A stretch of DNA of 64,000 nucleotides from an uncultured virus (IMG/VR IMGVR_UViG_3300042356_002199). Lineage: Duplodnaviria; Heunggongvirae; Uroviricota; Caudoviricetes. Positions 11,936-57,922 of the stretch are shown here, piece after piece; position 1 is the first letter of the stretch, and every line of letters starts with the position of its first letter. The DNA lies in IMG/VR virus record IMGVR_UViG_3300042356_002199. One strand, 5' to 3'. The translations under genes were made by a program, and so were the position numbers. Below the pieces are notes generated by a model. It was not told the origin of the DNA, did no database searches, and worked only from the letters and a program-made list of their open reading frames with translations.

Positions 11936-12174
11936 TTTTTCTTTTTCTCTTTTTGTTCTCTCTTGAGCGGCTTCATATATATAGGTGGCGTTGGAGTGCC
12001 CAAGGACGGTATGTCTAAAACAGAAACCTTACTATTTTTTGTTTCTTCTTTTGCCTTATTTTTTCCCGTCATTTGTCTTTTCGCAACAGGTAGTCCACGT
12101 TTTCCTATTTCGTTTAATTCTAAACTAAAAATATCTTTGTTGTCTTCTTCTTTACCAGGGCCCATAGTGTCCAT
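11932..12174 (-). CDS. Lys-rich hypothetical protein
   Basis: ORF overlapping the ends of its neighbours. Confidence 0.45.
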   Translation of the reverse strand: MDTMGPGKEEDNKDIFSLELNEIGKRGLPVAKRQMTGKNKAKEETKNSKVSVLDIPSLGTPTPPIYMKPLKREQKEKKKK

Positions 12175-12559: not shown

Positions 12560-15500
12560 ACCACTTGAAAGGTGTTTCTGTGCGGCCTGTTCAAAAAGGG
12601 CGATAGAAGCATCTTCTACTTCTGTCATATTTGGAACGTTGAACTGATTTGGTACCTCAAAACTTGCTATCGGTGTTCTGGCCTCAAAAATCTGATACTC
12701 CTGAGACGGGAACCCTTCTACTACCTCTCGCTCGGGAACTCTTACGAGATATGTTTTACTTGTTGGGAAGGCATTGCGCACGTATCCCCTGCTAGGCCCG
12801 AAGGAAGCATGGTTATAACTAAGATGTTCTTTGCCTGCTTTTGCTAGCGGATAGGCATATTCATATCGCGCCATCACCCTTCGTCCATTATCAATATAGC
12901 CACGAGCAATGTCCCTCAAATATTCAGGATTAATGCGTTCGTCATCTTGGCCCGCTACGTAGGTCTGATATTCCTTGCGGTCCCTATCCCTGCCTGGAAC
13001 TCTTGTGTTTTGGGCCAACTTTGGCCCATCCCAAACTCCAGTTTCATCATATTCTTTCAGCGCGAGTTGATAGGCATTGAAATTGCTTTCCGCCTCCTCG
13101 TAGAGGCTAATTATACTGTTTCGGGTTGTCTCATTGAGCCTCTGGGTATCCATGCCTTGACGCAAGTAGGTTCCGTCTCCGCCCTTGGGTAGCGTAAATG
13201 ATGGGTCGAGGACTCCGCCCTCGAGTATCGGTGCGCCAGTATGAATCAACCACATCGCATCGGGGTCATCTTTGGTTAACGACCACTCCCTGTCCTCCCA
13301 CGAACCACGTGATTCTCTTATTTTTTTGCCACGTTCGGCTAGGGCTGCAAAATTTGGGAGGTCGGCGATTGATACGGCATTTACATGTGCAATATCTCCA
13401 TCATTTTCCATTCTGTCCAAATTGATAAGTCGTTCATTTACGTGGTCTAGTTGTTTTTCAATTTGAGATAGGTAGCCATTAAATGTGGAACTTAAAGTGT
13501 CCTTGTCCCCCATCCCACTTGATTCTTCTGCTGAGATATTTCGGGTTATGCCTGATTTGGGATTTTTCGTTCGTGGTAATGCGACGCCGTTTGTTTCCCC
13601 ATTCCATACGCCCGTTTTTTGCCATTCATCAATAGTTTTTGACAAGGCAGATTGTTCGTCTTGTAATACTTTTTGCAACCGTTCTAAGTCTGCTCGCCCA
13701 AAAGTATTTCGTAATTCCGACCCTGATTTGCCAAATGAATCACTTGCAGTGACGTCCATCCATTGAGAAAGTATTGTTGAACCACTACTAAGAGTGTCGC
13801 CACCAGAAGAGAGGGATTCCTGTTCTGAGTCTTCTATGAACTTTCGTTTAGCATCCTCAAATTCAGAAACCGCTTTCTCAAATTTAATTTGCGTCTTACT
13901 CTCTTTATCACGACGCTTGCCTTTGTCTAGGACGTCAGCTGGCCAATTATTTTCAATAGCACCATCAACAATTGCTTGTAGAACTTTTGCCGTTGCTTCG
14001 GCGTCCGCATCGGCGTTATGATGCTTGTCCCCAAGGTCAACGCCAAGATATTTAGTTATGTCCCCAAGTGAGTTTGAAGGTGACTTGGTCCCATCCTTGT
14101 TCACTCTGAACGGTGCGTCGGGATTCGTCTCTGACCATTTTGGAAGTACCATGTCGGAAATTTCCTTGGTGTCAATAATTCCCTTGGGTCTCCATTCAAT
14201 GCCTGATTCTTTCAACGCGTCTTCTAGGACTTCGTTATCGAAAACAGCATTTTGCATGCCCATCAACTCTGTATCACCCATGAATTCAACCAGTTGCCTA
14301 TGGGCCTCTGCTATTGAAGGCTTGTCTGCTAGGTATGCATCTGTTATTGGGTTGCCATCTCCATCCTTGAGATTGTCTTGCGACCATTTTTCCCATTCCG
14401 ACATTGGCATGCCGGGGTTAACAAAAACGTTGAATCGCGCAATTACTTCACCATTCTTCATTTTTACAGCGCCTATTTGAGTAGGAGAGCCGTTCCCTGC
14501 AGATTCGTTGAACTTGTCAAATTTAAGACCAGTTGTTTCGTAGTCAATGAAAACTATTTCTTTGTCTGCAATGGCGCTCTTGAAATCTTCCCAATTAGTT
14601 ATTCCGTCAAATTCCGAATCCGCAGAGCCAATAAAGGCGCCCATGGTTGGCTTACGAGGATATTGCGGAGGCTTCGCTCCAGATGAAAGCTCTTGTATTT
14701 GCGCCATGAAGCTTCTATTTGTTGCATAATTATGCGCGTGGGTATTTCGTAATTTTTCGCTCGAAATAGTGAAGGTATGTTTCTTTCTGACGTTCGTCTG
14801 TCCTCTGGCGCCTAAATCAACTGTTGATGTTTCATGACTAACTAAAGCATCCCCGAGTTTTTCTTTGAGGGATTCCAGCATGTCCGGCGTTGAGTCGTCT
14901 GTTTCTATGGCAACAAGATTGTATGAATTGTTTCTGTTGCCAGAAGACAGTGCCGCGCTTCGTGCTTGTCCGTCCGTCTTGAGAACTAAGGCACCCTTTT
15001 CTTGAGGGTCAAAAGCGCCAACCTGACGTAGGGTGACTACTTCTTTATATAGTCCTGCTGGGTCCGGCTCAACGCTAATAACTTCAAGCCTTCCTCCAGA
15101 AATATGCTCACGTGGGCTCCTGTTACTGCTTTCATCATATAATGACTCGTGATAATACAGTGCCTCGTAATAGCCTTCGTGGTCTTCTGGAAGGGGCTCT
15201 CCCTCCCATTCGAGATTTATGCTTTCATTTCCTGTTTCTTCAAGAGCTTCTCCCATCTCCGTTTTTAAACGGCGCCTCTCCGATGGGTCTCTAGACTCTC
15301 TATAGTCTTCAACAAGTTTAATAAGTCTGTTAGCAAACTCTGTATCAAACTCGATATTCTCTTCATCAATTTCTCCTCTTTCTACACCAGCCAAGATGCT
15401 TTCCGCAAACTCATTAATATTGTAAAGAGTGTCGCTTTCATCCGTGCTATTGAAAAGTGGTTCAAATGTTCCTTCTGCTTTATAGGCGCCAGGGAAGTCT

Positions 15501-18500
15501 TCGAGAACCAAAAGAGCATCGGTACCAAACTTGGTCAAAAAATGTCCTCCACTAGGGGATGGTCCTTTATCAACAAAAGCAATTAATGGAATATCGACCT
15601 GAGCACCAACTTGCATTGCGTCAAAAAATTGTTTTGCTTCTTCCGGGGAGGAGAATGTCATGGCCCTGTATAGATAGGGCTGTCTGTCGTATTTGCCTTT
15701 ATTTAGCAAAGAATCAACGATGTTGGCCATAATATAGCGAGCCTGCTCGGTTCTTGCTTCTGGAGAGACGGTGGCGTCAAATCGCATTGCATCTCCCCAA
15801 AATCCACGAGTTTCATCAATATTGGGGTCTCTGTCAGAATAATCTTTTATTCCGGCAAGTTCGTAAGAAGCCATTCTTATCTGACGACACGGCATCCATT
15901 CTTCCCAGTCCCTTACCGACTCGCTCATTACTTGTTCTTTTTGTTGCTGGTCGTGGTCGGGTAATGCTCCCACTGCAGCATAATCAATAATGTCTTCGAC
16001 GGATTTCCATTTTGGAGTATGGGGTTTTTTCCCAGAAGATAAAGATTCTTTTCTTGACGGCGTACTAGTCCGACCCTCCCCTGTCCGCACCACGTCAAAT
16101 ATTCTAGACATGACGCTGCGTTCTCCATCCGGAGCAACCCTCGTCTCAGCGTTAGAAGAAAGTTGAATCGTCGGCCTTCCGTCGGTACGAGCTGCCCATG
16201 GCAAATTACTGGGGTCAACACCGGCGAGCGCATACACGTCATCGCGTAGTTTTTTGCTCAGAGCAAGTTTGGGCATGTCTTTGTTTGGATGCATAATTGC
16301 AACAAATGCTTCGGCAATAGCTTCCCGCTTGTTTACATTTCCATATGACGTTGCCGTTAGGGCCTTGTCGCGATTGGCTCCGAACATTTCCTCCGCACTA
16401 CGTTCAGTTAAGTCTATGAACTCAGACCAGATTTTAATAGCCTCATCGTCCGCATCGGGGTTCATGTACTCGTCTGCTACTTCTAATGCAGCGACATAGC
16501 GTGGGTCACCAATATCCCCGGAGCCGTAGAAAGACTTTTCTTTGCGCGATTTACCATTCGCCTCCGAGTCCCATGCGGCCCTGTAATGAAGCCAGTGACC
16601 ATATTCGTGCATTACAACACCGTGGAGCGACCTATCAACGTGTGCATCTCGTGGTTGAGGAATTCTGGCAGGGTCAAGATTAATCGGGTAAACGCCTTTT
16701 TCATTCGTTGTCATCGACTCTCTGTCAATGAGGGCGCGTGGTGCTAGCCCTATTAATCCAAATGCAGGAGAAGATAAACCGCTAATAAATTGCGACTTTT
16801 CCGCTCCGCGTTGCTGACGACTGAGTTCTAAGCGTTCTTTCATTTCGGGAGATACTTCAAAACCCTCCATTGCTTCACGCGTGAAGGAAACAATCATCGG
16901 CGAACCAAAGTTTTCAAACATCCACAACATCTGTGGAGAAGATTTGAGCATTCCCTCCACTAACTCTTGTGTAGCTTTTACGTTCTCTGGTGAGTAATCA
17001 ATATCTAGACTGTTTTTATTAGCCCTCAACTCGTCGTAGTACTTCTGCAGGAACTCGCGCTCTTTGCTGTTTGTTCTCCATGAACCACCAGCCATATCGT
17101 CTGCCCACATTTCAAAATGTTCCGCTTGTGAGCTCGGAATAATAACGCGAGAGATTTCTTCTGGGGTCATTCCAGCAAGCCACTTATTTGAGTTTCTGCG
17201 TACTTCATTCCCGGAAGCATCTGGCTTGCCGTACCCCTTTACTGCACGTCTTCCTGGTTCAATAGTTGGGCGTCTCAGAATGGGTCTTGCAAGTATGCGA
17301 GGACGCTCTCGTCCGGATGCAAGTCTATTGCTCATTCCTAAGGCGTCATACGCAAGAGCAAGCTCAACATCTTCAGGGTCGGCTTCATAGATTGACTTAC
17401 GGCCAGATGAAAGCCCCTTAGTGGTTGATGCTGCATCAAGTTTCTTGATAACGGAACCAAAATCACCTGCATATACGCGTGGTGTTGATGTGCGTGTATC
17501 GCCTACGTCTTGATATGCGACGTCAAGTATGGTTCTTGCTCGATTAATGCGCTGAACGATTCCTGTAGTATCTTTTGCCTCATCATTTCTACCCTCTTTG
17601 ATTCGATTGGCAGAGTAAAGTAAATAGTGAAGGTGTTTTACAGCTAATTTTTCTTTTGGCGTCAAAGGAGAATCGGGGTGGTCAATGATTGACATCATGG
17701 CTAGGTCATTGGCCCACTCCCCGTGACGGTCAAAGCCTCTTCCTGTTCCCAAGTGCCCGAATAGGTCATGAGAATCCTGAAGAGCCTTACCAGTGAGCCC
17801 CATATTAAATTTAGATGGGTCAGTTATCCCGCCGATGTAACCACGAATATAGGTAGAAGAGTTGTGAATTCTTCTAGAGCCTTGAACAAAGAGTCCCTCA
17901 TCCCCCATCAATTTGCCAGCCCGACGCGAAAGCTCCACCATAAATTCTGAATGTTTTTTCCATGCCTCGATATATGGCTTGGGCAATGTGTCTTGCTGTA
18001 AGCGTGGAAGACTGAGCTTGTCACCCGCTATTACGAATCCTAATGGAGCTATCATTTCCAACAATGGGAATCTAGTTCTGGCTTCTTCGCTCTCAAATTC
18101 CAAGGAAGAGCTGCCATCTTTATCTATTTTTCTTGCAACAATATTGCCATCAGTGTCGAGCCAAACATTGTTTTTAAATATAAGAGTGTCTTTAAGTGCT
18201 TCATCAAGTATCGAAAGAACATCATCTCGTTTTGGTAGCTCGACAGTACTCCAGTCTCGTTTGTCTGGAATTTGTTCTGCCAGTTGAGGTATTGGGTCAG
18301 CAGACACGAACGGGATTCCGTCAGAAGCAATATCAATCGCTATCGAGGACAGTAACTGCTCCCCAGTTTCGGAAAATGCGTCGCTGACCTCAACATCTAA
18401 GAGTGTTTTTTCAGCAATTTCGTCCAATAAACCAGGAATAGTATTTTCAATAGTGTTCTTTTGATTTGTTGTTAGCTCTGTGCCGGTTTTTTCTTCTATT

Positions 18501-21500
18501 TTTTTTATTATTCTTTCAGCAACTCTTTTGCTGGTCAACACCTCTCGCGATGAGCCCATTCGAGTGGCCTCTTCTTGAGTTACTTCTCTTGGTTCATCAA
18601 ACGCATCCGCGAGGTTTGCTCCAGATTTTGGCGTACGTCGTTGTACTCTTCCAGAAGAAAACCCACTGTCTTCATAAATTGTTTCAATTCTGGCTGAGGA
18701 GTACTTATCCGAATTGCTATCGTAAATTCTTAATTTTGCATTAGGACTCAATCGGCCGTAGTCATAGGCGGCCATGCGAGAAGAGGCGCTATTTACATAA
18801 AAATTATCAAATTCTGCCAACCTGACACTTGGGTGGTCTGCGTGAGGCGACCCCACGACACCTTCGGCATATTCGGGGTATTCTTTCGGTATATCCTGCA
18901 GTGCGACCACCCCCACCCGGTCGTCGGCATTCGGCGTTTCTGAAAAACTTTCTCCGCCTAAAAGCGTCGGCGTAATATATTCGGGATGCCCATTGTGCAG
19001 TTTGCCTACTTCAAGCAAGGCCTCATGAACGGATTCCTTCAATTCCTTGCCAGAGCCTTCCACGACCTTTCCTTTTTTCATTGGTATGACAAGTCCTTCA
19101 CCTGGCTTTGGTGTGAGGAATGTGTCAACTACGAAAAGGTTGTCCAAGGAGCCGGGGTTAGCGTCAAGTACGTCTCTTAGTGGAACGATGATAACGCTTG
19201 TTGATTCCGTGGGCTCATTTCTCCACATATGACCCTTGACCATGTGATTAAGGGTCATATGTATGGAATCGCGGTCTGGCATGGCGACTGGCTTGCCTGA
19301 TATGGGGTCCAATAATTGCTCGCCAGTATTGGGGTCAATTGGGATAAAATCCCCGGTTGGTTTAAGAATAATATTGCCGTCGTCATCATACTGAGGCTTA
19401 TATGATGTTTGGTGAACAAGAAACATGTCATCGATGCCTAGTGCTCTTGTTGTGCGGACGGTGTCGCCGTATTCATTGGTTCTTGTCGGGCCAAGAACGA
19501 CTTGCATATTTGGCGTGTCGTCCCAATAGGTGCCGTCAACGTCCCACATCTGTTCGTTGTACACCTTCGCAGCCGATACGAAATCTCGTCGGTTGTTTAC
19601 TAAAAGCTCCTCACCAATTTTTGCCAAACGTTCCAGTTCTTCTAGGGCAGGCTTATCTCCCCGCTTCGCAGCATAAGTTAAAGCTGCGACTAGGCCAACT
19701 TTTCTATTGCCAACACGCCCAGCCTCAATGTCGTCAAGAAGAGAAACTGCTTGAATCGCATGAAACATTTTCAACGCCCACTCTTGTCCTTCGGTGGAGG
19801 TTTTGGGCAGTCCGACAATTGCGTAAGGATTTAGAGGGACTATCTCTATATCTTCGGTATTGAACTCAGGCTGGAATCGGCCCAAGTCAGTATTGCCAAA
19901 CGCAAATTTTTTCCCGTCAATTTCGTAAACCGGGAATTCCATATATTGTTTTTGACTAGAGGTGGGGTCGGGCGTACCGCCAGAATCAATTAATTTAGTA
20001 CCTAGTTTCGGAAACTCCGTTGAACGCATCATCTCGACTGGTTCTGTTTTTACGGTTCCGATGCGCCCACTGGAAAGTGCGCCGGCTGGAGTCTTTCTCT
20101 TGGATACTTCACGCACGTAAAGAATCGACAATTCTTTTTCTTTGAATAATTCCGTTGCTCGTTGGAATTTGAGAAGATTTTCTGGGGTTGAGTCAGTTTC
20201 AAATAAGCCCGTATCAGGATTTTTCCGTATTAATGACGATATCCGGGATTTCTCTTCCGGACTAAACCAGTTCTGTTCAGTATCATCGAGGGCTTCTGCG
20301 ATTGTCCCAAGAAAAGTTTGTTTCCCTGGTTCCCCGGCCCACGTGAATCCATTTCTAGGCCAGTGCGTCGCCCCAATGGATTCTTCGGTATTGGACGTCC
20401 CCGCTGCAAATATTTTTAATTGACCGATAGCTTCGTATATTTTTTCATTTCTTGCATTGAATGCGCTTCCTATGCCGTGTCCTTGAGACTCCGAATTCAG
20501 AAAGAAAGTCTCATGCTGCATCGTCGCCGTTGGTTTATCTCCAGGAAAATACGAAAGCATTCTTGCGGAGCGACCAAATTGCACTTCTCCTTGGGTGCCG
20601 GGCCCAACCGACATCATCTCATCCCAAATCATTTCATCTGGCACCCCGGCTGCAGTTAGTCGTTCTGCGGCATCGGCAGTGGGGGTTAGTTTGAATTGAA
20701 ATCTTGCGGCTAGGCCAATGCCGGTTGAATCGGCTGAAAGAAATGGTTCAAAAGTTTGGTCTTGGACTAGTTGTATATCTTCTTCACTTACTTCGTCTAT
20801 CTCCACCTGCCAGCCAAGGGCTTCGAAAGATTCAGCAACATCAACAACAACAGTTTTTCCTAAATTTATTTTTTCGCCATTAGTAGCGGTGACGATGATG
20901 TCTTCCTCTAACTCAATTTCTCCACTAAAAATTTCACGTAATAAATCATGCACTCTTTTTCTTTGTGCTGCACGCTCTGGTGAATCATTTAAAATATCTA
21001 TTCCTGTGCCAAATACATCAGTATCTTCACTATACGAGTCGGCGCTATCAAGTAAATCGCTTTTTAATAATTCATTAAGCTCGTCTATCTGACGCAACTT
21101 TTCTTCGGTTAATTCTGGCTGAGCATCGACAAGCTCTTGATATTTTTTTCCAGACGAAAGACTGGACGGCCTATCTGGGGATTCCATGTTGGACGTAGCC
21201 GGTACTGCTTTTGAAAATGCTCGACCATCCTCGCTCAACGCATCACTGTGCTGAAGGTCCAACTCAGGGAAAGTTTCCCTATGTGTATTGAACATCTCTG
21301 CTGCGAGACCACGTCTTTGGTGTTTGGGTCTTGTGTTGATTTGAAAAACTTCAGTTCGACTGCCGCCACCGGGCGACCATACTTGCATGGCCGACATGGT
21401 TTTTATGGTCTTATCGTTGTCGAGCATGAACCTCAGAACATCCCTGTCGTCGATATCCTCCGGACCCAATGGAGATGGCTTATCGTTGAAGGGGTTCGCT

Positions 21501-22069: not shown

Positions 22070-22097
22070 TTAATTAAATAATACCATTGTAAATAAC

Positions 22098-29138: not shown

Positions 29139-29142
29139 TCAC

Positions 29143-41700: not shown

Positions 41701-44700
41701 CCTAGGCGAGCTTCCTTGATTCCAAATGCATCTTGGAAAACCTTACCTAGAGTCAATCCTTCGATAATGTCTGTTTGTACTTCGTTTGCTGAGAGTGGCA
41801 GTTGAAGCTCTTCTGATAAAGACCTATTCCCGACGACTATTCCAGCCCATCTGTGGTGTCCGTCAAGAATGTACGAGTCTTTTGTTGTAAGAATTGGTTG
41901 CATAAACCATTCTTTTTTCATTTCTTCTAAATATTTATCTCTGAAATCTTTGTCAGATATCTTGGGATTATCTTTTCTTATTTTTTCTGCTACTTCAATT
42001 GCTTTTTCTTGAATTGTTTGAGCGGTTCCGTCTGCCTTGCTTGCCACTATTTGTTGCTGTGAAGGCGCATACTCGCTTGGGTCAACATCGCGACGTCTAA
42101 CTGCAGGACCATTTTCTGGGTCCGAAACCTTAATTAGCCCATTCAGCCAATCAATGAATGGTGTTTCAAGGTTTACCTCAGTGTCATTCCAGTTAGTATT
42201 TTCATAAAGCCACTCTTTCGCTCTATCTGAAAGTTTAGAAAAAGAATCTTCCCTGTGCTCCGCCGCCGTCTTTCCGCCCATTTCGTTCTTTAATGAGTGC
42301 TTATCGGCGATGATTCCGTACAGGATTCCAGATATTTCTTCATCAGATACCGGGGGCTTGCCTTGTTCTGCGCGTTTAGCATTTTGTTTTTTTACTGCCT
42401 TGTCCAGTTCGTCTGCAAACTCTATTTCAAGTCCCCTGTCTCTGGACACGAGCGAGTTATCGTTGGCGTCCTTTAGTGGTTCCCATTTGCCTGCCGCAAC
42501 GCCATTCTTTAGTGCGCGGATTGCCTTGGTCTTGTGGCCAGATGAGCGCCCATTGGTCTGAGGCATTTTTTCTCTGTCAATACCAATATGCCCTGAACAC
42601 ATGAGGTTGTTGGCAGGGTTGTATAGGGAGCATAGGTCGGCCTGATAATTCCCGACATACTCCCCCTCCATGGATTTACGTGTCTCGGGGTCATCTAGGT
42701 CTGCGTCTGGATTTCTCTTTGCGTAGTCTTCTTGGAATGAGCGCCATTTTGGATGATTGTCTTTTATGTGATTTTTTGCAACTTTTTTAACTTCTTTTTC
42801 AAAGACCTTCTGTGCTTGTTCAGTTAGACGTATGTCCTGTTCTTTAACTTCCACATGGTGTCCAAGCATCATCATTGCTACGGCTGTATGGACATCATCA
42901 ACTTCGTAGAGATTTGAGTCCTTCTCGCTAATCGAACTTCTAGCAGAACGCTTTACTACTCCGCCAAACTTCTTGGATATCTCATCATCAGACATGTCGT
43001 TGATATTTGTGCCGCTATCGATGACATCGTTGAAAACGTCCAAAGCCTTTTTTGCGATGTCCCCTTCTTGACGCCTGCGTTCGGCCAGGTTCCCGCTTGT
43101 ATCTATCGTTCTGCCTGAAGAAAGTCTTTCGGAACGTTCTTCTGGTCCCATTTGTGCAAGTCTCTGCGCTCTTCTTGTTGGACGAGAACTATCCGCTGAT
43201 GACCCAGAAAATGGGGAACGCACACCAGCGCCTGATGCGAGTTTGTCTATGTCTGAATCTGTTGCTCTAACACGCACTCTTCTATCGAAACCCTCATGCA
43301 TCCTGTAGGCGGTTTCAGCTGCCTTGGCTATGATTTCTTCTTCTGGCGTGTCGGCTATAAATTTCGCCACCTCTGGATGGATGTCTCCACGAGAGATGGT
43401 TCCATCTTTCCCGCCACCGCCTAGTACGTCTTTTATGTTTCTGATAATCGAGGAGCTTGCTGCTGTACGCGACTCTGTTCTTTGCTGACGCGTAGATGGC
43501 TTCCCTAGTACTCCATCGGGCCTGGTGGCTCCAGAGGAGAGGCTTGGCCCGGCGGGAGCATCATCGTAGTCGGCAAATGAGCCACCGGCATCAGTGACCT
43601 TATCTAAAGTTGCCTTACTCTTGGTGCTGGCAGACTCGTCAGAATCACTTCGTGGTCCAGGGCCCGCCTTTCCAGACGAGCGTCGCTTGGTAACATACTT
43701 GTCCGCCATGGCTTGGATTTTTTTGCCGTGACTTCTAGCCCAAATTGCGTCTGTCGTGTTCTTGGAGAGATTTTCTGCCAATGAGTCGACGACTTCTACG
43801 GTATCTTTTTGATATGAAATTTCTGCACGGATAGTTCCGTCGTTGTCTATATTGGTAATTCTTATCCTGCCTGGCGGAGCAACGAATTTCTGCTCCGAAT
43901 CCCCTCCCGTAGTCGGGAATAGTCCGCGGTCTTTTTCGCGCACGGAAAGGATAACGCGACGCTTGGTTGTTCCGGACTTGGGGTCACGCTTTCCGCGTGC
44001 CGGCATTTCCGTCTTTTTGGTTCTGCTTGTTATGACCCTTCCGGAGATAAACTGGTCCAGGCTGACTTCTTTGCCCTGACTTCTTTGGTAGCCAACATCA
44101 CCTGGTTTGAAGTCAATTATTGCTTCCATCTCAAATGGTTCGCCTACCGACGTCCCATCGATTGCCTCCATCGTCGGTATGAGTAGATTTTCTACCTGCT
44201 GAACGACATCTCCTTCTTCAGAAGATGTTTTATCTACCTTTAGGCCGAGCTTTTTGAGGCGTGCGTTGCGCTTATTTATTGCTCGGCCGGCTCTTGTTTG
44301 CGAAACCGGGTCAAGAAGCATCCCTACATCTGATTCCGCCACATCTCCGAGCTCCTTCATGGCCTTTTTCTGTTCGGGCGTTGCCTTTACTCGAGCGCGC
44401 TCTTTAGCGCCGTGCTTGCGAGCTTCGTCAGCGCTCTTGAATTTCTTTTTAGGCTTTGATGGTGGATTTATGGTGTCATTAACTTTTTTATCAAGGTCTT
44501 TTTTGATTTGCGCTTTAGTCCGCGTATCTCCTGCGGCCTTCATGTTCTCTACGTACTGTTCTCTAATGACTTCAATCTCATCGGCCAATTTCTTGAATTC
44601 TTCAGATGAGGGGTCGAGCTTTGAGAGCTTTACCTTGTCGTCAACCAAGAGGCTGATAGTTTTCTTTTCGGGCATTGACTTAACTCTGTCGCGCAAATCA

Positions 44701-49180: not shown

Positions 49181-52100
49181 CTAACTTACTGTTCTCTTTT
49201 TGCCAGACAAGGTTTCGCCAGACTCAATTCTTTCTGCGGCAGTTCTGAGTTGTTCGGCGCTAAATATGTCATCGATGGTGTGATTGGTGCCGAACACTTC
49301 ATTGAATCTGTCAACTATTGATTGCAATTCTGAGTCAGAGAATCTTGCTTCGTTTCCTTTTTTCGGAGACCATGCTGAGCCTTTTGCCGTCGCAGCATCT
49401 CTTAACGCAACACCCATATCAGTCTTTCCAGTTATCTTGTTTCGACTGGCTTGGCTATTGAGCTTGCTATCAGGAAAACTCTTGTCAATAAATTCGTTCA
49501 ATGCTTCATACACGGCGTATTTTGATTTCTTGAGTTCGTTGTCAAATCGTTCGCCCGTGGACGCGTCTTTCCAAACTGAAGCGGCGTTAGGTATTAGTCC
49601 AGTTCTAATCATGTGAGCGACCGTGGCCGTTGGTATTCCGTCTTTCTTCCATTCGTCCCAGGCTCCGACGGCATCCATTCCGAAAGCCGCAGACATTCGT
49701 TCTTTGAGAGTTGTTTTCCATTCTTTTCTATCTATTCCTAGATATTCCAGAAGTTTCTCTAATTCAAAATCTTCTCTGCTTGTCTTATCTCCACTAATTA
49801 TCTCACCATCTGGTTCCGTGCTAGGCAGAACACCATCAATCAGCTCTCCGTAGAGGTCATATTCTGCCTCTGAGTCGCCCTTGGTCGGGTCCTCTGGGTC
49901 AAAGCGACCAGTTGCGCGGAATTTGGACACTGCGCTAATTTCGCCAAGCTTGCTATATTCGTCTGGCGTTATGGACTCGCCCTCTTCCGGGTCAAACCAA
50001 TGAGGGAACGCGTCCTTGCCGAAGGTCTCGATTATGAACCTGTCACGCATATTTGCACGACCAACATTCTCCATAGCGAGGTCTATCTTTGAGAATCCTT
50101 CAACATCACCACTGGGTGACGGCGGAATAATCTTTGCTACTTCTTCGGCGCTAACTGGGGAAAAGTATCGCCATGCGCTCAGCTCTGGTTGCTTGCCGAG
50201 TTCGGCAATAAGCAGTCTGACAGCATCATGGTTGATGCCGGCGTCCGGCGCTTCCAGGGCTGCCGTATCTGGACCATTCAAGCCAAGAAGTGTTGCAAGC
50301 TCTTTGCGTGTAACTGGGCGAGTCTGAGTCCACTGTAGCGAACTCTTCCCGTCCCTATTGGCGGAAACAAATTCGGTCGGAACTCTTAGAGTTTCAGCAA
50401 GTTTGTCCACGGACAGCATCCATGTCAGTGCCGAGGGAGCATCATTCACGTTATTGTCGCCTACTCTGCCGACACGAACGAGGTTTTGACGCTTTTTCAT
50501 CTCCGCACCAACGGACTTTATTGTTGCAGTATTTTTAGATTTGCGTGCTTCAGTTTCTGATGCATCGTCGTCCACATCTATTGCTATTCCGACGTCACGG
50601 AAACGCTTCCACACGTTCATTGAGAAATTCAACTTGGCTTGCTCTTTTGGCGACTTTAAGTCACCCCTAAAGCGAATGCCAGCAATTTCTTGTGCGCTTC
50701 CGCTGCCATCGTAAATTCTACTTCCACCCGACGACCCTCTTCTGTTGAGTCTGCCGCTGCGACCAGTTGGTGTATTTTTGGGGCCACTACCCGCTCCACT
50801 TGACAAACTCATCGATGGGGGGCCTGTGTCTTCCGGGTCACCTTCGCCCCCGATATCAAGAACGCGCTCTTCGTCTCTCTTGTCAAGGATTGAATCAGCT
50901 TCATCTTCGCTTTCAACTATTTCTACATCTGGCGATTCCGGTATGTCGACCTCGTCTTCATTGAGTCCTTCTACGTCCTCAACTACTTCAATTTCTCCTA
51001 CTGGCTCATTTTCTTTGTCTTTACTTGGCGTAATGCCTCGATTAAGTTTGTCGTACTTGTCTGGGAGGGCTATTTTCCCATCAGCGAATGCGCCCTTACT
51101 TATCTCTTCAGGTATATCCCCACGCTTGACGGCCTCTTCTATTCCTCTTCGCTGGTCGGCCGTGACTCCATCGGCAAGATAACTCTCAAATACAGAAGAA
51201 CCTGGGTCAATCATCTCTTGCGCTCTTGTTAAGGCAACGTAGACGAGGTTTGTTTCTTCCATCCAAGAGACGGCCGTCTCTCCTTGGGGCTTGTCAACCA
51301 TTACCTCGGATGGGTTCATGAAGTCTTCAGCCAAAACCACGAAACGCGATTCACGCCCCTTGGCGAGTTGGGCTGTAGTTATTTCTACGTCACCGCCAAC
51401 TTCCCGTGCAGATTCACGAAGTTCAGAGGCAATCTGTGTAAGTATTTTTGCGTTTTCATCCAAAGAACCAGCATCGATAATAAAACCGTCATGAGAACGC
51501 CTTTGAGCTCCCGCTCTTTGTGTTGCTAATTCATTGCCTAATTTTACTTTTTCTCCTAGTCCGAGGCGCTCAATGATTTTTTCCATATCCCGGCGATAGC
51601 GGCCATTACCCCTGCGACCCTCAATTGGTTTTTCAACGCCATTTGGAAGAATTGTTGGCCTACCCGTATCAACACCATCCCCGGTTATGAATATGCGACC
51701 AGTCGCCTTTCCTGGCTTGGTTGGTCCACCGCCTTCTATTTCGAGCTGACCATAAACGCCATGAACCATTTTTGAGTTGAGAGATGGGAGTATTTCAATT
51801 TTTTCAAGTTGATTATCTTGCCCTGTTTCACCTTGTCTAACATTTGTTTTTACAGTTTTGTGAGATGCTATTTTTTTAATTTGTTCTGGGCTGACAGCAA
51901 ATGCCGGCAGTTCAAGGGTCTCTCGTTCGGGAATCATTACCGGAGGGATGTTCACAAGGGTCTTCTTCCCCTTGTCATCTGTTACATATCTACTGGTTCC
52001 ATTTAGTAGCCTTAGCAATCCTTTTGCACCCAGCGGTAATCCAGATGGGTCATTGGGGTCGGGCTGCTGGGTGAGCCTAAAAAGAGTTGTCAGCTGAGAA

Positions 52101-55100
52101 TATTGAGATTGATTAACTTTTCTTTTTAGCTGACCGATATTCCATACGGGTCCTATGATTGAAGACTCCGGTGGTCTGCCGTTACGCTTCTTGTCGTATT
52201 CTTTTTTCGAGGCTTCTGGCAACATTATGTACAACAGGTGCTCGGCAAATGCGGCCATCTGCGTATGTTTTTTCGCGGGTATGACAATTTCTGGCATTAT
52301 CGAATTGCCGTTTTTGTCTTTTCCTTTTGGTGATAACAGGAACTGCATAAGAAATCCCTGAGCCTCATTGATAATTTGTCTATTAGACCTAGTGAGAATC
52401 ATAGATGGCAGGTTGCCTTTTTTGATTTCCTCAGCAGCATCAACTATTACGCCAGCCTTGGGCAGAACTAACTCATCACGTAGAGCGAGCAATGCCTTGT
52501 CCTGCTCTTTACGCGGCAAATCAGCTATATCAATTTTTCTATCTGGAGTAGAGTAAGTGTTCTCAATAAAAAGAATTTTTTCTCTTCTCTCAGCTTCCGA
52601 TAGTTCCGGCAAATCTTTGAGAACCCTATTTTTTTCTGGAAGGAGGTCGTCAAAGTTTTTATAAACAACGCCTTGTGCTTCGCCCTTGACGTGTTTCCAC
52701 GGCGGTTGTTTGACCCCCTGCTTTGTCAGGTATAGGTTTTGTAGAGCCAAAACAAGGTTTCCGAGGTGAGCCACATTGCTTCCATAGCGGAAAGACTGTG
52801 TTATCTCCAGTTCGTAGTCTGGCTCGAGTGAGGAAAGAATATTTTTTGCATCATTGAATGCAAATACTCCCTGACGGTCATCTCCGACAACAATTATTGG
52901 AAGGTTTTTTCTATTATCAAGAAGAACTTTTTCAATAATTGGGTTTGAGTCTTGAGCTTCGTCAACAAAGAATGCAGCTAAAGGTTTATCTTTTGTGGCA
53001 AATTTTTTAGAAAGTTTTGCCATTTGCGTGTTGCCTTTGTTGGGCTTCACGCTTGTCACAATCCACTCTTCACCATCAATTTCGTAAGTTCCGCCAACTT
53101 CATAAGATTTAGGAATTGTTTTGTTTTTAATTGACGATGTTCCAGCATGCCCAACCAAGCCAGGGTCCGTACGGAGGTCGGGGTCGGTTAACATCCATAC
53201 CTTTGGCCCGGCGTCACGATGAAGAAGAAGATTTGAATCTCCATCGAGCATTTTGTCGACGGCCCCCTGAAGCATGCCTATCCACTCGTCGGGAATTTCT
53301 TGTTCCGCGAAAGTGGCATCAACGGGACTAATTTCTCCGCGAGCTATCTTCTTTTGCCCTTTCGCGCTCTCAAGGCCTTCTTTTTCGAGTTCTGACATCA
53401 AGAACATTTTCTTTGATGTTTTTTCGTCTACAGAAAGCGTCCACCTGCGCATTGCTTTGTTGAAAAGGTCACCAAATTCCTCGACCGTAACTTCTGCGCC
53501 ATTTGGAAGCTTGAAACCCTCGAGTTCAACGTCCCCTCTTGTGAACGTTATTTTGTCTGACCGTTCTTTGAGTTTTAGGAAATCGACCCAATCTGCCCCA
53601 TCGTCGAGACGTTGCCAGCCAAGTTCCTTGAACCCAGGCCTCTTTCCAGATACGGTCACCGTATCTCCATCAAAAGTCACGCCACTAAAGTCGTACGGAA
53701 TCATTGGCGGCTCATCTGGCGTTTTCTCCGCGCTTATGAACTTTGGATTCTTCTTTTTCCCAAACCTTTTTTCACCATCTCTCTCTAAGATGCCAGCTTG
53801 GATTTTTCTCCTTAAATTTTTTCCAAATTTCTTATCACCCTGACCAAGAGTGAGGGAGTAGTACCAAATCTTTGAGGTTGTTGCAATTCCTGTATTTCCC
53901 GGGAACTGCACCTCTGCCTCGAGCTGATTCTTGACACCAAATACAGCATAATACATGTCACCCATTTTGTATTTTTCTGCGAGTTCTTTCACAGCATCGT
54001 TGATTGCTGCGTCATTCATTCCGTCAAAAGAGACGCCATATCTATCGGTAAGATACTTTAGATGCTCAACCCTTTCCTCGCCCTTGGAAGGCACGTTGAA
54101 TTCTCTCTCTAAAACCCATGAAACATTTTTTAAGGAAGTTGTTTTCCCGGTTCCTGCACCAGCAAGAACGCTCAACACTTTCGGGTCTTTGTTTCTGACC
54201 AGATTAATCACTAAGTCAAGAATGTCTCTCTGTTCAGCAGTTGGCTCAACCTTGAGCTTAAACACTCTTCTGTAAGAAATAGACCTGTCGCTGCGCTTGA
54301 CCTCGGGAACGCCATCTTTTGCGCCCTTGATTGGTCCAGTTACCTTGCCGCTTGAAAGTCCGTCAGCACCTATAACAGAGCCATCGCGACTCTTCTTTCC
54401 GACGTCACCGATAAACTCAGAAGCACGAATTATTTTTTCGTCGCGAGAGAGTTCCCCGTCTGGATTCGGAATCATTAACCGAGCCATCTGGGCATCTGGA
54501 TTTTCATCAAATTGGTCCAAATCAAGCATGTCTTCGATGAAACCAGAAATGGGCCTACTCGGCGGGATAAGTGGGCTGTCTTCGTATCCCGCAATATTTG
54601 GAACTTCCAGCCAGGTATCTATCTTGCCCTTGCGTTCATCGTCTGGAATTCCAGCCAAACGGCGCATTGTTGCCGAGCGATTGAGCAGGTAATCATTTGC
54701 CTGTTGAGCCTGAAGAATCGCCCTATGAATCGCAGTTGGGTCTGACTGTAGCTTCTTCATCCATGCGTTCAGATACAAAATATGGTCTTCGCGAATTACG
54801 GGCTCGAGACCCATTGAGCCCATTGCGAATGCTGAGCCGATTTCTGCAATCAGCTCTTCAAAGGCGTAGCCTTCATCACCAAACGTTTTCCCTAATTTTC
54901 TATCGAGTCGGCTCGGATGTGATGTCCAGTGGACTGTTTCATGCATGGCAGTTCCGTAAAAAGCCAAAGCGTCTTTAAATTGTTCAAATGCAGGCATATG
55001 AATTTTGTCGGTGCCTGGCCGATAGAACGCCTGCGAGCCCTTCGATTCAACGAATGCTGGCCCTATCTCCTGAATGACTGTTTCTAGGTCCTGAAGTCTC

Positions 55101-57922
55101 TGTTCTTTATTTATCTCTACATCTTCAAGAGCATAAAACTTCTCTGGGAGCCCCTTGACTTCAGCGACGTTGAAGACTTCCATAACTTTGTATGTTTTTG
55201 GACCAGAAACAATATTTCCATTTAGGTCAACAGATTCTCTGCCTCGTTGCGGTACTAGAACTTTTACGCCCTTGGTAGATAGGTCTTTCGCACTAATCTT
55301 CCCGCCACGTTTTTTCCATTGCCCAGCCCCAGCCCACCTGGAAGTCTGGTACCCGCGAGCACTGGCAGTTAGCTGTAGGAGCATTTGGTTTGTGCCCTGA
55401 TAAATTCTACCGCTTGTTGGATTTCTTGCATAAGCTTCGGGGTTCCGCCATGGAAACTGCCACGTTTTTGAATCAGGATTGAGCGAAAGCCCCAGAAGCG
55501 CATCAAGAATTTGCTTCGTCATCTCATCGTACATTTCCTGCACGAGTGGGGAATCTTCGGGGATTTCGTCCCCAACATTTAGTGTGCCAGACGAAAGCAC
55601 TCCATCATATTTGGCCTTCTCATCGCCTGTCCGCTTCGCCTCGGGCTTATTTAGGTACTTGCCGTAGCCGCTTGAAAGACCTTGGCTGGTCTTTTCTACC
55701 TGCTTTTTTACGGGCTTTTTCTTTGGCTTTTCAGTATCGGCCATTTCGCCTTCGGCCATCTTCTCGACACGTTCCATGTATTTGTCGATTTCGGCAATGG
55801 CCTTCTTTAACTTCTTTATTTGGTCAGAATCTGATGCTCCATCCAAAACGCCTTGAAGCTCGTCACGCTGCGACTCTGCTGCGCCATATTTTTCTGCCGA
55901 ATCAACATCCGGGTCGTCTATTCGCGGAAGATTTACAAGCTCGCTTCCAGAGGAAAGTTTCTGGCGCTCTTTAGGTTTTGTTATTTTCTCTACTTGAATT
56001 TCCGCTCGAGAAATTGCTGCAGCATTCGGCTTCGCAACCTGCCTGGGGGATGGCTTGGGGTTACGGATAGAGCCAGGGCCATCTGGCGTCGGGTCAGTTA
56101 CGGCAAGCGGAACCCCACGCAGGAATAGTCCCTCTCCAACAATGCCGTTAAGGTTCGCGTCGCGTGCGGTAAATGGGTCAAAGTCTTCCGCACCGATTGA
56201 CGTGAAGAAACGTCCTGCAGAACGACCTCCGCCTATGTTTGGGCGGTCAGTTAAACGGCCACTAATAGCTCTGCCGAGGCGATACCCGGCTGCTTTCCAC
56301 TCTAGGTTGTTTTCACTTAAGGATTTTTTTTTTAAGTTTGCGACTGCATTGTCGACTGCCTCAATCAATTCGTAGGTAACGCCAGAGGTCATGAAGATGC
56401 CGTTTGTGTCGACGAAAGAATCAACGCCGTGATAGTCGAAGATTGGGTCAAGAATCTGCTTCACTTGAAACGCAAACTGAGGAACAACGGGAAGCAAATA
56501 TGGCTTATCGTCGAAATCTTCGTTTTTGGAACCGAATTCACTTAAGAACTTAAAGCTCCGGCGCTTTTTTCTGCGCTTGCCGACTACCTTGCGAAGTCCT
56601 GCAATTGCCAATTCTCCGGGGTATTTTACCTCGAGGTCAGCAACGTAATCTTCTTCGGCAAATTCCTCGTCGAGTTCGTATGCCTTTGAGCCAGCTCCCT
56701 TGACAACACCCTTTGGGATGACAGCAAAACGGCACTTGCCTTCAGGCTCTACTTCCATGTCGATTATCTTGCAGGCGCTTCCACCCTGATAGAAGACGCA
56801 GTTTGAACACTTGACGCCGATTCCGGCAACTTCATTTTGTGCAGCAGGAGTATATGCCGCCCACACTCCCTCGGAATCTTCGTTGAACTTTCCGTGACGC
56901 TTTACGATTTTTAAAAGAGCATCCCTGAGGTCTACTTCTTCTTGGTCGAGATTGTTGGGGTCAAATCGACTCCCGTTATCGTTTTCGTATTGCACTGGTG
57001 GCAAAGGAACTATCTGGTTGCCGTTTTCGCCTGGCTTAATAGCAACTGGGATTGATGGCATTTGAGAAGGCCGAACAATTCTTTGTGGCTCATTTGGGGG
57101 CATACCTGGCATCGCCATTGGCATTGCGCTTACAGGAGCAATGGGCTTACGCGCGGGCATTACAACAATGGGGCGCGGCGCACCGAACATATAATGTCCG
57201 CGATTATTGCTGAATCCACACTTGTAGCGGCCAACTTCTCCGTTGTCCATTCTTCGCGCAAACGTAATCTCTTCGTCGTTAACTTCCATTAAAGATACTT
57301 TTGCGCCCAAAATTGCAGCAAGCTGCTTTTCTATCTCTGCCTTGTCAATTGGGTCTTCTTCGTTCATCATGGACATCAAGATTCCACCGGACAACTCTTC
57401 GGACTTAACGGAAATAGTCCCAGTTAGCTGGTTTGCGCCATGCAGAACCGGAGATACCTCATATAACTCAAGTTCATAAATGATATTTGCTTGGGATTTC
57501 TGGTCAAACTGAGCTCGAAGTGTCTTGTAACCAATCGACCATTCCTGCTCCTCGCCAAAGAAAGCAACCATAGCGAAGGCCTCTCGGCCTTTTTCCGAAT
57601 TGAGATTAAACTGAACGCGAGCAAATAGGCCACCAATTCCGGCCATCTTCATCTTCATGGGAAGGCGGTTGTCTGTGTTCGGAACTTCGTAAATCTCCAG
57701 GACCTTACCGATGGGGTCGTTCCAACTATGTCCCCAGACAACGCGCGGCTTACGGCGTTGGAGGCTCTTCGTGAATGCTCCAGTGGCAACGATGTCGCCC
57801 ACAGAGTCCTTGTTGCCGATGCCAGCCACGAAGCATTCGACAATTCCCTGCGCTTCATCCAAATTGATGGAGTCGGAGTGCCCGAGCGTAGACGACTTAT
57901 ATTCAAACAATTCTGATGGCAT
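49181..57922 (-). CDS. Giant polyvalent protein C (2913 aa): HK97-type prohead protease fused to a Cys motif, ArdC-like and UvrD-like SF1 helicase modules
   Basis: WGHSWNDPIG, EWSIGY, LYEVSPVLHGAN (protease); NPTSGRIYQGTN, HETVHWT, EELIAEIGS (ArdC); AGAGTGKT, DEAQD, VGDDRQ, SFRYG, AKGRE, YVALTRA (SF1); 5 exact LSSG. Confidence 0.88.
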   Translation of the reverse strand: MPSELFEYKSSTLGHSDSINLDEAQGIVECFVAGIGNKDSVGDIVATGAFTKSLQRRKPRVVWGHSWNDPIGKVLEIYEVPNTDNRLPMKMKMAGIGGLFARVQFNLNSEKGREAFAMVAFFGEEQEWSIGYKTLRAQFDQKSQANIIYELELYEVSPVLHGANQLTGTISVKSEELSGGILMSMMNEEDPIDKAEIEKQLAAILGAKVSLMEVNDEEITFARRMDNGEVGRYKCGFSNNRGHYMFGAPRPIVVMPARKPIAPVSAMPMAMPGMPPNEPQRIVRPSQMPSIPVAIKPGENGNQIVPLPPVQYENDNGSRFDPNNLDQEEVDLRDALLKIVKRHGKFNEDSEGVWAAYTPAAQNEVAGIGVKCSNCVFYQGGSACKIIDMEVEPEGKCRFAVIPKGVVKGAGSKAYELDEEFAEEDYVADLEVKYPGELAIAGLRKVVGKRRKKRRSFKFLSEFGSKNEDFDDKPYLLPVVPQFAFQVKQILDPIFDYHGVDSFVDTNGIFMTSGVTYELIEAVDNAVANLKKKSLSENNLEWKAAGYRLGRAISGRLTDRPNIGGGRSAGRFFTSIGAEDFDPFTARDANLNGIVGEGLFLRGVPLAVTDPTPDGPGSIRNPKPSPRQVAKPNAAAISRAEIQVEKITKPKERQKLSSGSELVNLPRIDDPDVDSAEKYGAAESQRDELQGVLDGASDSDQIKKLKKAIAEIDKYMERVEKMAEGEMADTEKPKKKPVKKQVEKTSQGLSSGYGKYLNKPEAKRTGDEKAKYDGVLSSGTLNVGDEIPEDSPLVQEMYDEMTKQILDALLGLSLNPDSKTWQFPWRNPEAYARNPTSGRIYQGTNQMLLQLTASARGYQTSRWAGAGQWKKRGGKISAKDLSTKGVKVLVPQRGRESVDLNGNIVSGPKTYKVMEVFNVAEVKGLPEKFYALEDVEINKEQRLQDLETVIQEIGPAFVESKGSQAFYRPGTDKIHMPAFEQFKDALAFYGTAMHETVHWTSHPSRLDRKLGKTFGDEGYAFEELIAEIGSAFAMGSMGLEPVIREDHILYLNAWMKKLQSDPTAIHRAILQAQQANDYLLNRSATMRRLAGIPDDERKGKIDTWLEVPNIAGYEDSPLIPPSRPISGFIEDMLDLDQFDENPDAQMARLMIPNPDGELSRDEKIIRASEFIGDVGKKSRDGSVIGADGLSSGKVTGPIKGAKDGVPEVKRSDRSISYRRVFKLKVEPTAEQRDILDLVINLVRNKDPKVLSVLAGAGTGKTTSLKNVSWVLEREFNVPSKGEERVEHLKYLTDRYGVSFDGMNDAAINDAVKELAEKYKMGDMYYAVFGVKNQLEAEVQFPGNTGIATTSKIWYYSLTLGQGDKKFGKNLRRKIQAGILERDGEKRFGKKKNPKFISAEKTPDEPPMIPYDFSGVTFDGDTVTVSGKRPGFKELGWQRLDDGADWVDFLKLKERSDKITFTRGDVELEGFKLPNGAEVTVEEFGDLFNKAMRRWTLSVDEKTSKKMFLMSELEKEGLESAKGQKKIARGEISPVDATFAEQEIPDEWIGMLQGAVDKMLDGDSNLLLHRDAGPKVWMLTDPDLRTDPGLVGHAGTSSIKNKTIPKSYEVGGTYEIDGEEWIVTSVKPNKGNTQMAKLSKKFATKDKPLAAFFVDEAQDSNPIIEKVLLDNRKNLPIIVVGDDRQGVFAFNDAKNILSSLEPDYELEITQSFRYGSNVAHLGNLVLALQNLYLTKQGVKQPPWKHVKGEAQGVVYKNFDDLLPEKNRVLKDLPELSEAERREKILFIENTYSTPDRKIDIADLPRKEQDKALLALRDELVLPKAGVIVDAAEEIKKGNLPSMILTRSNRQIINEAQGFLMQFLLSPKGKDKNGNSIMPEIVIPAKKHTQMAAFAEHLLYIMLPEASKKEYDKKRNGRPPESSIIGPVWNIGQLKRKVNQSQYSQLTTLFRLTQQPDPNDPSGLPLGAKGLLRLLNGTSRYVTDDKGKKTLVNIPPVMIPERETLELPAFAVSPEQIKKIASHKTVKTNVRQGETGQDNQLEKIEILPSLNSKMVHGVYGQLEIEGGGPTKPGKATGRIFITGDGVDTGRPTILPNGVEKPIEGRRGNGRYRRDMEKIIERLGLGEKVKLGNELATQRAGAQRRSHDGFIIDAGSLDENAKILTQIASELRESAREVGGDVEITTAQLAKGRESRFVVLAEDFMNPSEVMVDKPQGETAVSWMEETNLVYVALTRAQEMIDPGSSVFESYLADGVTADQRRGIEEAVKRGDIPEEISKGAFADGKIALPDKYDKLNRGITPSKDKENEPVGEIEVVEDVEGLNEDEVDIPESPDVEIVESEDEADSILDKRDEERVLDIGGEGDPEDTGPPSMSLSSGAGSGPKNTPTGRSGRLNRRGSSGGSRIYDGSGSAQEIAGIRFRGDLKSPKEQAKLNFSMNVWKRFRDVGIAIDVDDDASETEARKSKNTATIKSVGAEMKKRQNLVRVGRVGDNNVNDAPSALTWMLSVDKLAETLRVPTEFVSANRDGKSSLQWTQTRPVTRKELATLLGLNGPDTAALEAPDAGINHDAVRLLIAELGKQPELSAWRYFSPVSAEEVAKIIPPSPSGDVEGFSKIDLAMENVGRANMRDRFIIETFGKDAFPHWFDPEEGESITPDEYSKLGEISAVSKFRATGRFDPEDPTKGDSEAEYDLYGELIDGVLPSTEPDGEIISGDKTSREDFELEKLLEYLGIDRKEWKTTLKERMSAAFGMDAVGAWDEWKKDGIPTATVAHMIRTGLIPNAASVWKDASTGERFDNELKKSKYAVYEALNEFIDKSFPDSKLNSQASRNKITGKTDMGVALRDAATAKGSAWSPKKGNEARFSDSELQSIVDRFNEVFGTNHTIDDIFSAEQLRTAAERIESGETLSGKKRTVS
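50807..54346 (-). other. Module: UvrD/Rep-like SF1 helicase bounded by LSSG sites
   Basis: Helicase motifs I-VI in order between LSSG at 54347 and at 50795. Confidence 0.8.
54359..55585 (-). other. Module: ArdC-like antirestriction protein (ssDNA-binding N-domain plus zincin) bounded by LSSG sites
   Basis: W..PW, YQGTN, VFNV, AFY.P..D.I.MP, HETVHWT, YAFEELIAE. Confidence 0.85.
57400..57922 (-). other. Module: HK97-family prohead (maturation) protease
   Basis: DSVGD..GAF, H in WGH, S in WSIGY, EVSPV. Confidence 0.85.

Follow-up and report, generated by a model that had tools for sequence, protein, structure and literature searches.

A conserved LSSG signal at the module junctions of three giant proteins of a lake myovirus, with a prohead protease fused to one of them as candidate processing enzyme

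We analyzed a stretch of 64,000 nucleotides (the window) from the uncultured virus IMG/VR IMGVR_UViG_3300042356_002199, which is part of an uncultured myovirus of approximately 155–170 kb from lake water, and found that three giant open reading frames (ORFs) on its minus strand, here called ORFs A, B and C, are punctuated by the tetrapeptide LSSG. The three giants are chains of independently folding, evolutionarily swappable modules on disordered linkers, and LSSG is almost certainly a signal under selection at their junctions. A novel feature is that ORF C itself begins with the only head-maturation protease recognizable in the sequences of this phage, directly after the portal gene. We lean toward the reading that the three ORFs are polyproteins cut at LSSG, most likely by this protease, with a cargo that is loaded into the head and ejected from it.

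Enrichment and conservation of LSSG

The three giants contain 18 exact copies of LSSG (10 in ORF A, 3 in ORF B and 5 in ORF C), as against 0.28 expected from each protein's own composition (0.11 + 0.08 + 0.09). It is their most common 4-mer, the runner-up having 6 copies, and composition is not the cause of the count, since none of the other 11 arrangements of these four residues is found more than 5 times (range 0–5). The tetrapeptide is absent from the 28 other ORFs of at least 150 aa in the window (8,836 aa), and the five six-frame matches outside the three giant frames are all on the plus strand and outside called genes. By our reading of the site list, the 18 sites are written in 17 different 12-nucleotide codings that use both TCN and AGY serine codons, which argues for selection on the peptide. 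The preliminary description of this DNA, made from the letters alone, had listed the same 18 copies at the same coordinates, estimated about 0.3 by chance, seen none in the other called proteins and concluded from the varying codons that the peptide is selected; all of this holds, as does the presence of the variants FSSG (18650), LASG (17312 and 43230) and LSSN (ORF A aa 1970), and the 4-mer count that it proposed as a check gave the enrichment above.

The signal recurs among relatives of the phage. In the nearest of them (G001), ORF A is unchanged and ORFs B and C have 95% and 70% identity, and the diverged part of its ORF C has LSSG at four of the five sites and LASG at the remaining one. 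A scan of IMG/VR with ORF C aa 1–655 as the query gave 69 loci of 47–100% identity, and LSSG is the most common or tied 4-mer in 33 of the 38 distinct ORF C homologues of at least 1,500 aa, with up to 16 copies (in 3,125 aa); the five exceptions have FSSG or LASG instead, or few sites. Across 54 giants, LSSG occurs 351 times and each of the 11 other orderings 0–44 times. For these conservation counts only identical sequences were removed, and many of the IMG/VR loci are close relatives, so that the events are not independent. Summed over six related genomes, giants and tape measure protein together (57,849 aa) contain 87 copies (1.50 per 1,000 aa), compared with 10 copies in the 212,370 aa of all other called proteins (0.047 per 1,000 aa). 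Conservation in homologous phages, which the preliminary description had wanted checked, is thus found, and the motif is not equally common elsewhere in the genomes, an outcome that the description had said would speak against it.

A logo of 231 distinct site contexts extends the signal to [KR]-[L/F/M]-[S/A]-S-G-[KR]. The residue before the motif is R or K in 58% of contexts, the first position is L in 81%, F in 12% and M in 5%, and the second is S in 91% and A in 9%, followed by S and G; R or K comes directly after the motif in 59% and at the next position in 37%.

Position of the sites between modules

The sites lie in linkers. Seven of them are near Pfam or PHROG domains and none of the seven falls inside a domain envelope. 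In an AlphaFold model of ORF C 620–1230, built from a 21-sequence alignment (mean predicted local distance difference test score, pLDDT, 62), pLDDT falls below 50 in the segments that hold sites 656, 776 and 1189, site 749 adjoins a segment of this kind, and folded units stand between the sites. A model of ORF A 2360–2790, built from four sequences (mean pLDDT 69), has a confident DEDDh fold at model residues 106–392 and LSSG at residues 102–105 and 394–397; confidence is low throughout before residue 105, which makes site 2374 uninformative. Compared with random positions, the sequences flanking 309 distinct sites have lower hydrophobicity (0.18 vs. 0.28) and more disorder-promoting residues (0.74 vs. 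0.63).

The borders marked by LSSG are also borders of evolutionary exchange. When the DEDDh module is aligned among four genomes, an invariant [LF]SSG stands on both sides and nothing is alignable beyond it, and the module sits at different places in the four giants (aa 2461, ~870, ~747 and ~1441). The modules of ORF A stand in a different order in relatives, and its 18 BLAST matches have 36 ends, of which 56% fall within 15 aa of a site, compared with 11% when sites are placed at random (0 of 2,000 random placements reached the observed value). The breakpoints of the mostly collinear ORFs B and C are not significantly near sites (p 0.09 and 0.13), and the sites of ORF B other than that at aa 1400 shift around within linkers among six genomes. 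Between sites 776 and 1189, ArdC-N and zincin form a unit of the same extent as the stand-alone ArdC genes (approximately 300–400 aa) in four of the four other phage records examined.

The polypeptides combine several unrelated domains, namely S78, ArdC-N, MPTase-PolyVal and UvrD in ORF C and RNase_T with unknown modules in ORF A, as expected of polyvalent proteins. The preliminary description had placed the sites in linkers that bracket recognizable domains and had suggested modeling the inter-site segments and looking for module swapping in homologs. The linkers stand, both models show folded units between sites, the DEDDh module has moved among four genomes, and sites inside folded domains, which the description had said would count against it, are not seen near the Pfam and PHROG domains or in the two models. 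The UvrD-like and DEDDh modules are bracketed as described; ArdC and zincin are bracketed jointly, not separately. As to the claim that each GNAT and each zincin is bracketed, the GNAT and a second zincin did not get beyond hints below threshold: Pfam searches of 16 of the 20 inter-site segments gave nothing beyond such weak matches (GNAT, E 0.059; a second MPTase in ORF A, E 0.092).

ORF B has two sub-threshold protein-language-model leads that we did not use, one of 0.82 from aa 1–1263 (43533–47321) to a cluster with ATLF (lethal-factor) and ADP-ribosyltransferase families, and one of 0.81 to viral hypothetical proteins. A cultured relative has an ADP-ribosyltransferase gene within the corresponding portal–capsid interval.

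The S78 protease and the possible routes of processing

The N terminus of ORF C matches Peptidase_S78 (PF04586) at aa 27–170 with 45.8 bits against a cut-off of 21, and the head maturation protease family phrog_80 with an E value of 7e-26; searched against the PDB sequences, the protease domain gave no match at E values up to 1. His65, Ser129 and His161 are invariant in 27 ORF C homologues. The catalytic serine aligns in seven of seven sequences with S114 of HK97 gp4, which together with H65 we take to be the catalytic residues of that enzyme, and the histidine lies in VVWGH, offset by an alignment gap. S78 domains typically occur in free-standing proteins of approximately 200–500 aa; in the window, as in every full-length homologue, the domain continues into approximately 2,700 more residues of the same chain. 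A second head protease was recognized neither in the window nor in the complete relative G005, where the scan covered 150 of the 155 called ORFs of 90–1,700 aa (all but four that cross locus borders and one other). The other peptidase matches of G005 are cell-wall peptidases and a weak Proteasome-family match. The latter is a 210-aa protein (L171:11048–11680) that matches a Proteasome subunit weakly and partially (E 5e-7) and may be an Ntn-type hydrolase.

LSSG is probably a protease cleavage site, cutting by a phage protease being the simplest interpretation. That S78 is the enzyme that cuts it we regard as evenly balanced; it is our favored candidate because S78 proteases ancestrally cut head proteins, one of the carriers contains it in cis, and it is the only head protease found. 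Under the reading toward which we lean, ORF C would enter the procapsid via its protease and scaffold-like part, and ORF A via a leader homologous to ORF C aa 534–655. The S78 protease would then cut the LSSG junctions and free ArdC, the UvrD-like helicase, the DEDDh exonuclease and the unknown modules inside the head, from which they would exit with the DNA at infection. A cut of the form LSS↓G would fit an assemblin-like pattern, in which P3 is hydrophobic and both P1 and P1' are small. What the sequences show is that the motif is enriched, conserved and placed at junctions, that a protease with its catalytic residues is fused to ORF C, that two leaders are homologous and that an A run is conserved; the cleavage, its enzyme, the scissile bond, the packaging and the ejection are what we infer.

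The leaders carry a shared element. ORF A aa 19–57 (21899–22015) resembles ORF C aa 537–571 (56210–56314) and the corresponding region of the ORF C homologues in three relatives, G002, G003 and G006 (E 1.9e-18 to 5e-4), with the pattern ..K-A-A-x-x-R-L-G-R..R-x-x-[DN]-R-P-x-I-G.. in common; ORF B is without such a leader. The element may be a capsid-targeting part. In T4, a capsid-targeting sequence is followed by a gp21 site, and the leaders of ORFs A and C, each ending at the first LSSG, recall this arrangement.

Just before the ORF C leader, the coding strand has a run of ten A residues. Of 34 distinct ORF C homologues, 28 have A10–11 at the equivalent position and another has such a run farther along; the shifted frames of these 29 all meet stops within 0–5 codons. 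AAA makes up only 52% of the lysine codons, yet the run is conserved. The stretch was unchanged in three DNA sequencing runs, possibly including the source of the record, and one RNA sequencing run covered scattered parts of a relative of 95–97% identity, outside the A run. The pattern suggests a candidate slippage site that would yield a short product with the protease and a long one with the cargo, and under the processing scheme above the run would probably set the ratio of the short to the long product.

The capsid protein offers weak support for S78. Its LSSRE lies in a conserved block Q-L-[ST]-S-[RH]-E, and its VFSAT lies in an almost invariant block K-D-[VI]-[YF]-[ST]-[AGS]-[LM]-P near the position that aligns with the HK97 maturation cut, which is at K103/S104 according to the portion of PMC10275583 used here. 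One pairwise alignment puts HK97 TFNK↓S on VFSA↓T of the window, and other alignments shift by up to four residues. The corresponding block of the Gordonia phage ChisanaKitsune and two of its relatives is VFSSG. In the comparison with T4, phiKZ and SPN3US, where a motif is common to capsid or scaffold and cargo, the window's capsid protein has LSSRE and VFSAT and that of ChisanaKitsune an FSSG whose placement is alignment-dependent.

Several observations weigh against cutting by S78 inside the head. The capsid protein contains no exact LSSG, and its region at the HK97 cut, K-D-V-[FY]-[ST]-[AGS]-[LMT], is aligned with an uncertainty of approximately four residues, which makes the link to S78 specificity weak. 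The scaffold-like part of ORF C (aa 217–533) has no LSSG. ORF A adjoins replication genes, outside the head module. The tape measure protein of the relatives, encoded outside the window (1,405–1,629 aa with an HxH-type peptidase-like C terminus; G001:C1:34958–39817 and four homologues), has [LF]SSG at aa 36 in five of five genomes and near aa 576–581 in four of five. The motif is therefore not confined to capsid cargo, and because tails assemble apart from proheads these sites are out of reach for a prohead-confined protease. Added to this is the dependence among the counted loci mentioned above. What the preliminary description had proposed, polyproteins loaded into the head and cleaved at LSSG, thus keeps in its favor the conserved junction signal and, as the gene-context evidence for virion packaging, the head-module position of ORFs B and C, and has the neighborhood of ORF A and the motif in the tape measure protein against it. 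Its analogies with cysteine proteases that cut at Gly-ending motifs found no counterpart: no papain-like or adenain-like protease (of the type of PLpro with its LxGG, adenain or African swine fever virus pS273R) was found in the giants, the window ORFs or the 150 proteins of G005.

The sites in the tape measure protein and the position of ORF A would be explained if the junctions were cut by the MPTase-PolyVal zincin of the ArdC module of ORF C, an enzyme that is not confined to the prohead and could work in the cytoplasm, inside the head or once ejected into the host; we consider this unlikely. Its HExxH is intact in every ORF C homologue examined (six of six genomes) and invariant in the 21-sequence alignment, the module is itself flanked by LSSG like the proteases embedded in viral polyproteins, and the second MPTase hint in ORF A, although below threshold, points the same way. 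Zincins can cut before L, F or M. The basic-then-hydrophobic context of the sites would also suit such an enzyme, a further point against S78. Iyer et al. 2017 (PMC5512222), in the sections considered here, favored a zincin as the processing enzyme of polyvalent proteins and described such peptidases as always C-terminal; the same sections report that ArdC of pSa and also TraC1 are transferred uncleaved. In the four other phage records, moreover, ArdC-N with MPTase is a protein on its own with no polyprotein present, which suggests a role of its own. Co-occurrence cannot separate the two enzymes, as both are always present together.

We consider it unlikely that the giants are delivered uncut, threaded through the tail as beads on a string and diced after ejection by the co-traveling S78 protease or zincin. 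The tape measure protein would then have its sites because it travels the same way, LSSG would act as an activation code used after entry, and the phage would deliver a self-dicing anti-defense polyprotein with its virion. LSSG might also never be cut and serve as a conserved linker element, for example a docking or threading signal for tail passage or a site of serine modification. Every carrier, whether giant or tape measure protein, is long and plausibly leaves by way of the tail, and the basic flanks resemble kinase-type sites; however, no kinase or obvious modifying enzyme was found among the 150 proteins of G005, the sites are exactly at the borders of modules shuffled between genomes, a protease is fused to one carrier, and the same pattern is known where a protease processes the head proteins of T4-like and giant phages (PMC10052503, in the part considered here). 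We therefore see an uncut signal as distinctly improbable. Cutting by a host protease or by an unrecognized phage protease seems more improbable still: many phage proteins are without a family match, and the 210-aa protein of G005 has its weak Proteasome-family match, but the motif is conserved among phages whose hosts probably differ, and two intact proteases are already encoded inside the carrier protein. A compositional artefact of linkers rich in G, S, D, E, K, R and P is refuted by the 4-mer counts, the conservation among homologues, the comparison of residue orders and the retention of sites at aligned positions while their flanks diverge, and has practically no chance of being right.

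Known systems, feature map and the phage

The nearest processing systems are those of T4 gp21 and SPN3US gp245 (the latter from PMC10052503), which share with the present case a head-maturation protease and a short motif on proteins that are, or here would be, head-internal; their N-terminal propeptide, like the putative leader here, ends at a site. They differ in that here enzyme chains of 2,800–3,300 aa carry up to 12 sites and one of these chains includes the protease in cis; their motifs are L/I-x-E and S/A/G-x-E rather than LSSG, a tail protein also carries the motif here, and our system is known from sequence alone. The cargo modules are those of polyvalent proteins, multidomain conflict proteins with ArdC-N, MPTase, helicase and nuclease domains that are linked to virion genes and whose processing has been predicted (Iyer et al. 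2017, PMC5512222, sections as above); those sections name no cleavage motif, and the N-terminal protease fusion is a difference as well. HK97 has in common with our phage the S78 family, the catalytic histidine and serine, the portal–protease–capsid module and the N-terminal scaffold domain of the capsid protein, whereas gp4 is free-standing with 225 aa and ours is followed by approximately 2,700 aa of cargo.

T4 gp21 processes internal proteins and Alt, and the assemblin–scaffold precursor of herpesviruses has an N-terminal protease that cuts at (V/L/I)-x-A↓S. The latter resembles ORF C in placing a protease of the same fold class at the N terminus of a scaffold-containing precursor with internal sites; the herpesvirus cargo is scaffold only, while that of ORF C is an enzyme chain, and the scissile bond of ORF C is a candidate one. 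Retroviral Gag and Gag-Pol are similar in that a slippery site possibly gives a short structural and a long enzyme form, followed by cutting with the encoded protease, but in ORF C the unshifted frame is the long form and the putative slippage would truncate it.

The novel points are the four-residue punctuation of enzyme chains, the N-terminal protease fusion, the motif-bounded shuffled cassettes and the sites in a tail protein; a full-text search (articles without supplements) found no publication on LSSG with phage cleavage. Processing was predicted in 2017 with no cut-site rule in the cited sections of PMC5512222, and LSSG supplies a conserved four-residue rule that predicts the pieces. 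The rule is conserved across a large family of abundant lake phages and, with the in-cis protease as the prime candidate, is testable. If it holds, the cargo set of uncultured phages would become readable from sequence, and the way in which new anti-defense modules can be swapped in, as cassettes bounded by LSSG, would be explained. The features are collected in Table 1.

Table 1. Features of the window on which the analysis is based (aa, residue number in the protein; all positions in nucleotides of the window)
Feature	Position	Strand	Remark
ORF A	12152..22069	-	3305 aa; leader and ~11 modules; 10 LSSG, 1 FSSG, 1 LASG
ORF A leader, aa 1-125	21695..22069	-	ends at first LSSG
LSSG, ORF A aa 126	21683..21694	-	
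LSSG, ORF A aa 304	21149..21160	-	
LSSG, ORF A aa 665	20066..20077	-	
FSSG variant, ORF A aa 1137	18650..18661	-	
LSSG, ORF A aa 1553	17402..17413	-	
LASG variant, ORF A aa 1583	17312..17323	-	
LSSG, ORF A aa 2010	16031..16042	-	
LSSG, ORF A aa 2374	14939..14950	-	
LSSG, ORF A aa 2461	14678..14689	-	invariant in 4 genomes; N-terminal edge of DEDDh module
DEDDh (RNase_T) exonuclease module, ORF A aa 2502-2727	13889..14566	-	between LSSG 2461 and 2753; domain aa 2506-2697
LSSG, ORF A aa 2753	13802..13813	-	[LF]SSG in 4 genomes; C-terminal edge of DEDDh module
LSSG, ORF A aa 2760	13781..13792	-	
LSSG, ORF A aa 3167	12560..12571	-	
ORF B	38781..47321	-	2846 aa; 3 LSSG, 1 LASG; without family match
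LSSG, ORF B aa 1261	43530..43541	-	
LASG variant, ORF B aa 1361	43230..43241	-	
LSSG, ORF B aa 1400	43113..43124	-	[RK][LF]SSG in 6/6 genomes, flanks diverged
LSSG, ORF B aa 2474	39891..39902	-	
ORF C	49181..57922	-	2913 aa; S78 prohead protease, scaffold-like region, leader, LSSG-separated cargo modules
HK97-type prohead serine protease (S78), ORF C aa 19-216	57275..57868	-	Pfam PF04586 E 9.8e-12; phrog_80 E 7e-26
A10 run, coding strand, ORF C aa 530-533 (LKKK)	56324..56333	-	just before leader; a shift either way meets a stop in 1-3 codons
ORF C leader, aa 534-655	55958..56323	-	ends at first LSSG
LSSG, ORF C aa 656	55946..55957	-	in segment with pLDDT <50
LSSG, ORF C aa 749	55667..55678	-	edge of low-pLDDT segment
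LSSG, ORF C aa 776	55586..55597	-	coincides exactly with a four-residue segment of pLDDT <50
ArdC-N and MPTase-PolyVal zincin module, ORF C aa 795-1087	54662..55540	-	ArdC-N 796-887, zincin 946-1068, HExxH invariant; between LSSG 776 and 1189
LSSG, ORF C aa 1189	54347..54358	-	LASG in G001; low-pLDDT linker
UvrD-like superfamily 1 (SF1) helicase module, ORF C aa ~1229-2237	51212..54238	-	between LSSG 1189 and 2373
LSSG, ORF C aa 2373	50795..50806	-	
C-terminal module, no assigned function, ORF C aa 2376-2913	49184..50797	-	after last LSSG
Portal gene	58049..60160	-	immediately upstream of ORF C
HK97-fold major capsid protein	32754..34103	-	scaffold-like N-terminal part of ~150 aa
Capsid LSSRE, aa 95-99	33807..33821	-	L-[ST]-S kept in 43/56 distinct relatives (our reading of the alignment)
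Capsid VFSAT, aa 146-150	33654..33668	-	at most ~4 residues from position aligned with HK97 K103/S104 maturation cut

On the minus strand, the portal gene is followed by ORF C, which starts 127 nucleotides downstream, a 571-aa protein of unknown function, ORF B, five further unknowns and the capsid gene. The window is phage DNA, with genes for terminase, portal, HK97-fold capsid protein, primase-helicase, single-stranded DNA-binding protein and class II ribonucleotide reductase as well as a Rad52-like annealase, an exonuclease and an endolysin; complete relatives are 156–172 kb long and have terminal repeats. The host is likely an actinobacterium, as judged from gene content: the window encodes a DUF732 protein and a capsid protein that shares 47% identity with its counterparts in Gordonia and Brevibacterium myoviruses, and the complete relative G005 encodes WhiB and an Rpf-like transglycosylase. 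The phage type recurs in lakes, since 19 DNA runs from lakes or fresh water, belonging to 17 studies and possibly including the source of the record, contain the whole of the stretch 55400–57900.

The stretch 27213–29646 holds the class II (B12-type) ribonucleotide reductase gene with an HNH endonuclease gene directly after it. G005 has a baseplate J protein after the tape measure gene, and its auxiliary genes include, beside WhiB, those for a tryptophan halogenase, a full dTDP-rhamnose pathway (RmlA-D-like), collagen-repeat fiber proteins, thioredoxin, ThyX and a pyrimidine-dimer glycosylase.

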